Source: Dictyostelium discoideum
Taxonomy: Eukaryota
Length of the DNA stretch: 64,000 bases
Direction: 5' to 3'
NCBI GenBank assembly: GCA_000004695.1
Contig: CM000153.2
Span: 512,001 to 576,000 of the forward strand
Shown here: in pieces, positions 9,264 to 10,107 of the stretch
Position numbering within the stretch: the first letter of the stretch is position 1
Layout of the letters: every line of letters starts with the position of its first letter
Position numbers and translations under genes: made by a program
The notes under the pieces: model-generated
The model's input: the letters and a program-made list of their open reading frames with translations, nothing else
Database searches by the model: none
What the model was told of the DNA's origin: nothing

Positions 9264-10107
9264 TTTTGTTAGTTAATTCCTTAAAAAATATTTTTATTAT
9301 TATTTTTTTTTTTATTATTTTTTAATTTATTTTTTTATTGTTCTTTTCTTTTTAAATACACTCTTTTTAAATATTTTTGATCAATATTTAAAACACTATA
9401 AAATAGAAAAAAAAAAAAAAAATTAAATGGAAAAAATTTTATAAAAAAAAAATATTTATTTATTTTTAAAAAAAACCTAAAAATAGCTTTTTTATTGTTA
9501 AAAAGGTGTTTTTTATCACTTTAAATTTTTTGATTTTTCAAAGAATGTGAAGTTTAAAAAACTAATAAAAAAGGAGATTTTGAAAACAATCACATCAATG
9601 GCTTTTATTAATATCATATTTTTGGAATAATATGGGTTATTTTTAAACCCGCTTACACTTTTTTTAAATTATTATAAAAAATAACCATAAATTTTAAACA
9701 CCACATAAAAAAAGGTTATTTTCAAAAAAAACACATCAATGACCTGAATAATATAAAAATAACAGTAACAATAATCTAAAAATAAATTATTACTATAAAA
9801 ATATTATTAAATTATTAAAAAATAACAGTTCACAATCACTATAATCCAAAAATAAATTATTATTATAAAAATATCATTTACAATTTTTTTTTTTCAATCC
9901 TTTTTTTTAAACCCACTTTTTTTTTTTATTATTAAAAAAAATAATCACCACACAAAAAAAAGGTTATTTTTAAACTCACAATAATCAAAAAATAAATTAT
10001 TATAAAAATATTACAATTTATAATTTTTTTCAATTTTTTTATTTTTTTTTTATTTTTTGGTATTTCATTTTTTATTTCTTTTTCAAATATAACAAATAAT
10101 TTTTAAA
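9264..10107. promoter_or_regulatory. Shared divergent (bidirectional) promoter between the two Tgr-like genes, ~0.85 kb, built from direct repeat modules
   Basis: The two ATGs (9263 on the - strand, 10108 on the + strand) face away from each other. The interval contains repeated ~45-100 bp modules: ataatc(t/c)aaaaataaattatta(c)tataaaaatat at ~9768, ~9839 and ~9981; ttttaaaCCC(g/a)CTT...CACCACA..aaaaaaGGTTATTTT at ~9640 and ~9903; and ACACATCAATG(G/A)C at ~9593 and ~9731. Confidence 0.6.

Follow-up and report, generated by a model that had tools for sequence, protein, structure and literature searches.

A pair of divergent tgr genes

The window analysed here is a 64-kb stretch of the Dictyostelium discoideum AX4 genome and is very AT-rich. 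It contains two 100-N gaps (25868-25967 and 34660-34759) and, at 51900-52260, a stretch full of homopolymers of each of the four bases (cccccccc, tttttt, aaaaaa, gggg), which looks like low-quality reference sequence. Within the window, two divergent tgr-family (IPT/TIG) genes lie head to head on either side of one short intergenic region:

6010 to 9263, minus strand: Tgr partner gene, with a signal peptide, a TIG domain, a transmembrane segment and a long N-rich tail
9264 to 10107, no strand: intergenic region of 844 bp with 13.6% G+C, between the minus-strand ATG (9263-9261) and the plus-strand ATG (10108)
10108 to 12733, plus strand: tgrI-like gene, exons 10108-10183 and 10257-12733, product of 850 aa

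Pfam TIG matches were obtained in both genes (E = 4e-7 and 3e-12) and an Ig_TgrO1 match in the plus gene, and the pair is flanked by a Dcp2-like NUDIX gene and an adaptin-like gene (Adaptin_N / beta2-adaptin appendage). The open reading frame at 10271-12733 (820 aa) is 100% identical to the AX4 IPT/TIG protein XP_639162.1/Q54R85 and, with the intron ending at 10256, the complete product of 850 aa has exactly the length of this entry. Q54R85 is a tgrI-family paralogue that has Ig_TgrO1 and TIG domains, with 79% identity to Tiger protein I3 (TgrI3).

The minus gene starts at 9263 with a signal peptide, followed by a short intron and the open reading frames 9132-8090 and 8010-6010. Its cytoplasmic tail (window 6010-6700, minus strand) repeats DVACSSNNNN about five times and IMADQQL(R/K)L(I/M)NRNKKNL twice, amid long poly-N tracts. 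In AX4 this gene is not intact: an 11-bp deletion (ATATGGCCAAT) at 8099/8100 shifts the frame into a TAA stop at 8092-8090. These 11 bp are present in four homologues of the minus gene (two at L003, one at L004 and one at L006), and putting them back restores one continuous open reading frame of about 1065 aa. A homology search with the minus gene returned six unnamed relatives and no AX4 protein among them, which is consistent with pseudogene status but does not prove it. As judged from the sequence, the minus gene is probably a pseudogene in AX4 or encodes a truncated secreted product. It is therefore doubtful that a functional pair is expressed divergently and in a coordinated manner in this strain.

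Three repeat families in the intergenic region

The earlier note on this DNA had proposed three families of direct repeats between the two start codons, and all of them were found within a few bases of where it had placed them. The A family, expected at ~9768, ~9839 and ~9981, has a 23-nt core AATAATCNAAAAATAAATTATTA at 9770, 9840 and 9980 with at most one mismatch; no further copy exists in the 64 kb, where chance would give 0.53 even with up to three mismatches allowed. Extended A copies cover 9762-9808, 9832-9878 and 9976-10030, with offsets of 70, 140 and 210, and a repeat search gave three copies at 9759, 9829 and 9969, with spacings of 70 and 140. The B family (~9640-9725 and ~9903-9975) was recovered as 9634-9726 against 9901-9975. 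It is a gapped repeat made of three ungapped pieces with offsets of 247-264, in addition to GGTTATTTTTAAAC at 9635 and 9962. The B-family word TTTAAACCCRCTT has four matches at no more than one mismatch against 0.44 expected, two of which lie in an unrelated AT-rich area devoid of module homology. Finally, the window has just two copies of the C-family word CACATCAATGRC, expected at ~9593 and ~9731; they lie at 9591 and 9732, within a 36-nt repeat (about 9567-9602 versus 9708-9743) of 85% identity.

When the interval was compared with itself, as the note had suggested doing by dot-plot, the diagonals stood well above those of dinucleotide shuffles: the best composition-weighted diagonal reached 33.6 bits, whereas 200 shuffles gave a mean of 18.0 (sd 1.8) and a maximum of 23.9, and seven diagonals of at least 20 bits (three of them above 30) were found against 0.15 expected. 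Other AT-rich intervals of the window also score highly through homopolymers and microsatellites, and we therefore used a statistic that ignores periodic words, in which non-periodic 14-mers with at least three G/C are counted when a second copy occurs at no more than two mismatches. Of 278 informative 14-mers in the interval, 84 are repeated, against about 11 in a typical one of 49 other AT-rich windows; only coding low-complexity tails and the 51.5-52.7 kb region (low-quality-looking sequence with a (CAAAAA)n array) are comparable. The three repeat families in 9264-10107 are thus real.

Two simpler descriptions of these repeats were rejected. The interval is not a microsatellite or low-complexity array, since the arrays reported by TRF are only T-rich or AT-rich with a short period (6-23 bp) and the 84 repeated 14-mers survive the periodic-word filter. 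Short TRF arrays do lie inside or between A blocks (9753-9774, 9789-9823) or overlap A3, the last A copy (10017-10058), and none over the interval has a 70- or 140-bp block periodicity. Nor is it a regular 70-bp array: in the global autocorrelation the sole peak is at 140/141, just over the shuffle maximum, with none at 70. The interval is a mosaic of nested duplications rather than a regular array.

Block map of the putative AX4 promoter

Considering both the content and the order of the repeats, we divided the region upstream of the plus gene into the following blocks and putative promoter units; promoters of related genes that carry the same blocks are referred to as type 1.

9567 to 9602, plus strand: block C (AAAAAAGGAGATTTTGAAAACAATCACATCAATGGC), one copy in each of 10 type-1 promoters
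9634 to 9650, plus strand: imperfect palindrome GGGTTATTTTTAAACCC, which opens block B and is conserved among type-1 promoters
9634 to 9726, plus strand: block B of unit I, with the palindrome, a T-run, the inverted arm AAAATAACC (9678-9686), CACCACA (9699-9705) and GGTTATTTT (9714-9722)
9708 to 9743, plus strand: block C', a partial second C copy (85% identity, offset 141), followed like C by GAATAATAT
9762 to 9808, plus strand: block A1 (core ATAATCT...), with TATAAAAATA at 9794-9803, at a position orthologous to A1 of the paralogues
9832 to 9900, plus strand: block A2 (core ATAATCC...), with TATAAAAATA at 9864-9873, then TTTACAA, a T-run and CAATCC, the putative core-promoter end of unit I
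9901 to 9975, plus strand: block B' of unit II, with the right palindrome arm AAACCCAC (9909-9916), a T-run, CACCACA (9946-9952) and GGTTATTTTTAAAC (9962-9975)
9976 to 10030, plus strand: block A3 (core ATAATCA), with TATAAAAATA at 10001-10010 and TATAAT at 10019-10024, then T-runs
about 9567 to 9900, plus strand: putative promoter unit I, ending with A2, TTTACAA, the T-run and CAATCC
9901 to 10107, plus strand: putative promoter unit II, starting within the right palindrome arm and colinear throughout with L008:22385-22618

The position of 9567-10107 and its TATA/T-run pattern point to a promoter role. A TATA box associated with oligo-dT is the classical Dictyostelium promoter arrangement. 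Because TATAAAAATA is found in every A block (9794, 9864 and 10001) and T-runs follow A2 and A3, the A module appears to be largely a duplicated core-promoter segment, and the active core promoter of the plus gene is, on the same grounds of position and pattern, probably A3. In B', other sequence takes the place of the left palindrome arm where the block meets unit I, and the equivalent of the end segment of A2 adjoins the 5' UTR in one-unit paralogues. The ATGACCTGAATAATATAAAAA part of C' also occurs upstream of L003:14121. A hairpin or cruciform at the palindrome was considered and rejected, as the folding of 9628-9692 as single-stranded DNA has an ordinary energy (z = -0.9).

Comparison with paralogous promoters

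Loci of relatives of the plus gene were taken from long-read assemblies of other D. discoideum strains, of a cryptic sister species, of D. citrinum and of D. firmibasis. Type-1 promoters were located by stringent BLAST and pattern scans, a lax BLAST threshold having given AT-rich noise. Ten were found in three D. discoideum genomes: that of AX4, two at L002, three at L003 and four at L008. The order C, palindrome/B, A is constant in 10 of 10, in one orientation and directly upstream of a tgrI-like ATG, from which the blocks are never more than about 540 bp distant.

Such regularity bears on the idea that a mobile element (a MITE or the remnant of a retroelement) inserted repeatedly in the intergenic region and left the blocks as its fragments. 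Short repeats that look dispersed in AT-rich DNA, and the transposons found in tgr loci of some strains (10.1101/2025.08.01.668227), would fit such an origin. However, no copies occurred outside tgrI-type promoters or on the opposite strand in the ~234 kb examined, neither terminal inverted repeats nor target-site duplications were seen around the blocks, and their order is fixed relative to the gene, which makes insertion of a mobile element highly improbable. An artefact in the assembly of the AT-rich AX4 reference is likewise very unlikely. It might be suspected from the N gaps and the visibly low-quality stretch at 51.9-52.3 kb, but the copies within AX4 are only 73-86% identical and differ by substitutions and indels, unlike the product of a mis-assembly, and the same blocks, with A1/A2 duplicated, are present in independent long-read assemblies of other strains.

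The number of blocks is less constant than their order. Across the 10 type-1 promoters there are one to three A blocks (with degenerate extras) and zero to two copies of the right part of B (CACCACA...GGTTATTTT). In an alignment of six sequences, all have C, A1 and A2, as well as the palindrome GGGTTATTTT(T/C)AAACCC(A/G)C, its T-run and the inverted arm AAAATAACC; the right part of B is restricted to some copies, and the canonical B' and A3 segment is found in AX4 only. At L003, one copy additionally contains degenerate A-like blocks, together with a C' fragment in inverted orientation (TTATTCAGATCATTGATGTGATTGT, L003:13740-13800), which lies between A-like blocks and is present besides the direct copy.

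Across paralogues, A1 (ATAATCT) groups with A1 and A2 (ATAATCC) with A2, and the 70-bp duplication is therefore older than the divergence of the paralogues. The promoters at L002, L003 and L008 align colinearly with unit I. The promoter at L008:22616 is, by comparison, a single unit: palindrome, left and right parts of B, one A block (core ATAATCA), T-run, 5' UTR and ATG. AX4 9901-10107 aligns end to end with L008:22385-22618, from AAACCCAC to the ATG, and shares with it the ATAATCA core and an A3 junction, GGTTATTTTTAAACTCACAATAATCA, identical to that at L008:22480-22505. Since this segment is colinear with the complete single-unit promoter of a paralogue, AX4 has two promoter units in tandem. 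Indeed, the units are head to tail and colinear, single-unit relatives exist, and copy number is polymorphic among the 10 promoters. Identity between AX4 and its paralogues is about 82-89% in the promoter blocks, about 90% in exon 1 and the intron, and about 94-95% in the coding sequence or gene.

Two other loci bear signs of further rearrangement. At L008:22300-22385, just upstream of a type-1 promoter in a head-to-head tgrI-like pair, lies a fragment spanning the tgrI exon 1 / intron 1 / exon 2 junction, which marks a rearrangement breakpoint. In GCA_054859355.1, the copy of the pair adjacent to dcp2 and syntenic with the window (L004:8001) encodes a protein 83% identical to the plus gene product under a promoter that is entirely different from the AX4 type-1 promoter and tgrI3-like. 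The differences between L004:8001 and window 10108 imply that either the promoter here was replaced or the gene itself gave way to a non-orthologous one.

A bidirectional promoter or a promoter of the plus gene

The earlier note had described the region as a bidirectional Tgr-like promoter assembled from direct repeats. The head-to-head TIG pair and the direct-repeat blocks stand; the bidirectional attribution is not supported, as the blocks belong to the plus tgrI-like gene. All of them are co-oriented with this gene and nearer to it, and they stay with tgrI-like genes when the partner is missing: in the tandem arrays of GCA_054859355.1 (L002 and L008), type-1 promoters are kept without a divergent partner, the upstream neighbour being a same-strand gene or gene fragment.

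The further proposal, that the repeats are multimerised transcription-factor sites driving coordinated divergent expression, can claim several observations. The genes are head to head and 844 bp apart, A1 and A2 are both kept in most paralogues, and GGTTATTTT occurs four times within 336 bp of the interval versus seven times in the whole window, these copies being copies of one another and not independent. The genes tgrB1 and tgrC1 use one common promoter (10.1101/2025.10.22.684067); paired GBF-like sites lie between the divergent sigN group 2 genes (PMC2257962). Against it stand, besides the association of the blocks with the plus gene, the frameshift of the AX4 partner and the variable, unconserved copy number of the blocks, together with the scans for known elements, constraint and conservation that follow.

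Known elements. The consensus given for the GBF response element in PMC2257962, (T/G)G(T/G)G(T/G)G(T/G), is matched once in the interval (CCACACA at -160, in B'), where the background averages 1.35 per 844 bp, so the scan for GBF G-boxes proposed in the note yielded no enrichment. In other tgrI-type promoters (tgrI3, L004, L006) this consensus is matched four to five times, within a conserved block that is distinct from and unrelated to the type-1 blocks. A G+C-richer block, some 70 nt long (GGGTACCTATTTTGGACTCATTGAGGGGTTTGAAATTGATTTACCCCA(C/T)CCCACAC), is common to the tgrI3-type promoters, with several GBF-consensus matches in the CA-rich run at its end:

L001:5735-5810: tgrI3-type G+C-richer block
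L004:7385-7460 and ~12570-12650: tgrI3-type G+C-richer block
L009:9565-9635: tgrI3-type G+C-richer block

By its sequence, this block is a better candidate for GBF sites than anything in the promoter of the AX4 window. Patterns of the GtaC, STAT and MEF2-like types are short and AT-rich, so chance matches are expected at 14% G+C. The pentamer GGGTT/AACCC is commoner in tgrI-type promoters (~2.5 versus 0.55 per 600 bp), again among copies that are not independent.

The AAACCCAC motifs also raise another reading, in which they would be promoter elements, similar to DUSE, for genes of small non-coding RNAs (Class I RNAs) within the intergenic region. In Dictyostelium, the DUSE element precedes ncRNA genes by about 60 nt (PMC7919456). 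Rfam gave no family match in the whole window at the gathering score, and only a chance miRNA match over 9200-10200 at an E-value of up to 10. What speaks for this reading is the likeness of AAACCCAC to the C-triplet DUSE element. With neither a TGTG box nor a G+C-richer stem 60 nt downstream, where the very AT-rich A block lies instead, it is extremely unlikely.

Constraint and conservation. The view that the G/C-containing cores are cis-elements found no support when the non-redundant type-1 copies were aligned and their columns sorted by G/C or A/T consensus: 57.5% of G/C columns are invariant versus 61.9% of A/T columns (p = 0.60). The type-1 blocks were undetectable in the sampled promoters of D. 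citrinum, D. firmibasis and the cryptic species, BLAST hits being confined to D. discoideum strains, and also in the syntenic L004, AX4 tgrI3 and L009 promoters. The best AX4 segments against tgrI3, L004, L006, D. citrinum and D. firmibasis scored 22-25 bits, where the shuffle maximum was 20-26. Short resemblances at the edge of the shuffle distributions are AAACCCA(C/T) in tgrI3, AAAAATAATCACC(A/C)CA, and GGGGTTGTTATTTTTAAC in D. citrinum. These sequence comparisons give no positive evidence for selective constraint on the cores and, likewise, none against factor binding.

Multimerised sites for coordinated divergent expression are hence unsupported, because the partner is frameshifted, GBF matches are at background, Rfam finds no match, G/C columns are not preferentially conserved and the blocks are undetectable in other species. 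We consider this model rather unlikely.

Probable duplication of a promoter unit

We favour another explanation as the likely one: 9567-10107 would comprise the core promoter of the plus tgrI-family gene together with its upstream regulatory region, and the repeats would be nested local duplications of one ancestral unit. This unit would have comprised C, the palindrome GGGTTATTTTTAAACCC, B, and A with its TATA box, followed by a T-run and the 5' UTR. An old 70-bp duplication, common to most D. discoideum paralogues, may first have produced A1 and A2; a partial C copy (C') would then have been inserted between B and A1; and in AX4 a second unit (half palindrome, B', A3 and core) would have been placed downstream of the first, in tandem, either through tandem duplication or because paralogous promoters recombined unequally or non-allelically. 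The blocks, of 50-90 nt, are too short to fix this order of duplications, which gene conversion among paralogues could mimic. The outcome in AX4 would be two or three TATA-containing core segments and a doubled set of AAACCCAC, CACCACA, GGTTATTTT and TCACAATAATC. These extra cores and doubled motifs may modulate the strength or the start-site choice of the plus gene, a plausible regulatory effect. Moreover, the fact that A1 and A2 are kept distinct in most paralogues could reflect selection for two copies. The multimerisation itself is probably a by-product of the structural instability of tgrAHIO genes, and neither a conserved design nor a shared bidirectional element.

Other members of the family have undergone duplications of their own. 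At L004:7576-7703 there is an unrelated tandem duplication of 64 bp in two copies with 100% identity, at L006:18722-18860 a local duplication with 73-bp spacing and 86% identity, and at L007:9626-9801 three copies with 50-55-bp spacing. The repeated units of these three promoters have a common (T/G)CTATTTTTAA(A/C) core. The perfect duplication in the sister promoter L004 implies that the duplication process is ongoing. Altogether, at least four lineages (AX4 type 1, L004, L006 and L007) show tgrI-type promoters with independent duplications, whose sizes range from 50-75 bp to about 200 bp. The fraction of repeated informative 14-mers has a median of 0.11 in 20 tgrI-type promoters versus 0.025 in 99 other AT-rich windows (Mann-Whitney p = 0.015, with paralogues that are not independent), and AX4 is the highest at 0.33.

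A broader proposal, which we regard as rather unlikely, is that local tandem duplication of promoter units is a recurrent and possibly selected mode of regulatory evolution in tgrAHIO genes, and that the palindromic motif GGGTTATTTTTAAACCCAC is a candidate factor site for tgrI whose copy number tunes expression. This motif occurs in AX4 as GGTTATTTT, four times, and the related GGGGTTGTTATTTTTAAC is present in three of three D. citrinum promoters.

Relation to known systems and significance

The locus resembles the allorecognition locus tgrB1-tgrC1 in its gene layout: two divergent TIG-domain genes of the structurally dynamic tgr family are separated by less than 1 kb, and the long cytoplasmic tail of one partner is essentially lacking in the other. 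It differs in that it involves another subfamily (a tgrI-like gene with an unnamed partner), in that the partner is frameshifted in AX4, and in that the repeated blocks travel only with the tgrI-like gene. With sigN group 2, known for its paired GBF-like G-rich boxes (PMC2257962), it has in common multigene-family promoters in which short G/C-containing boxes, conserved among paralogues, recur in AT-rich intergenic DNA between opposite genes; the boxes described here fall outside the GBF consensus, with one match, at background. Like copy-number-variable duplications of promoter segments in general, it consists of colinear head-to-tail units whose number varies among paralogues and strains, but here the unit includes a TATA-containing core and belongs to a gene family of extreme turnover. 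The locus is a new example of this known kind of variation, the copy-number-variable tandem promoter duplication. It flags a small set of candidate cis-motifs and is of modest practical value, with no new kind of element.

The tgr family comprises the self/non-self recognition genes of Dictyostelium, and recent genome comparisons have revealed an extreme structural turnover of its coding units. Many tgr genes occur in head-to-head pairs that are duplicated as pairs (10.1101/2025.10.22.684067). The tgrAHIO genes in particular form a large set, match transposons in how often they duplicate, turn up at new insertion sites and have, for the most part, low expression (10.1101/2025.08.01.668227). 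The promoters analysed here would extend this turnover to regulatory DNA, whole units including TATA segments having apparently been duplicated, lost and recombined among paralogues and strains. The natural variants with one, two or three A blocks thereby offer material on how promoter copy number may relate to expression.
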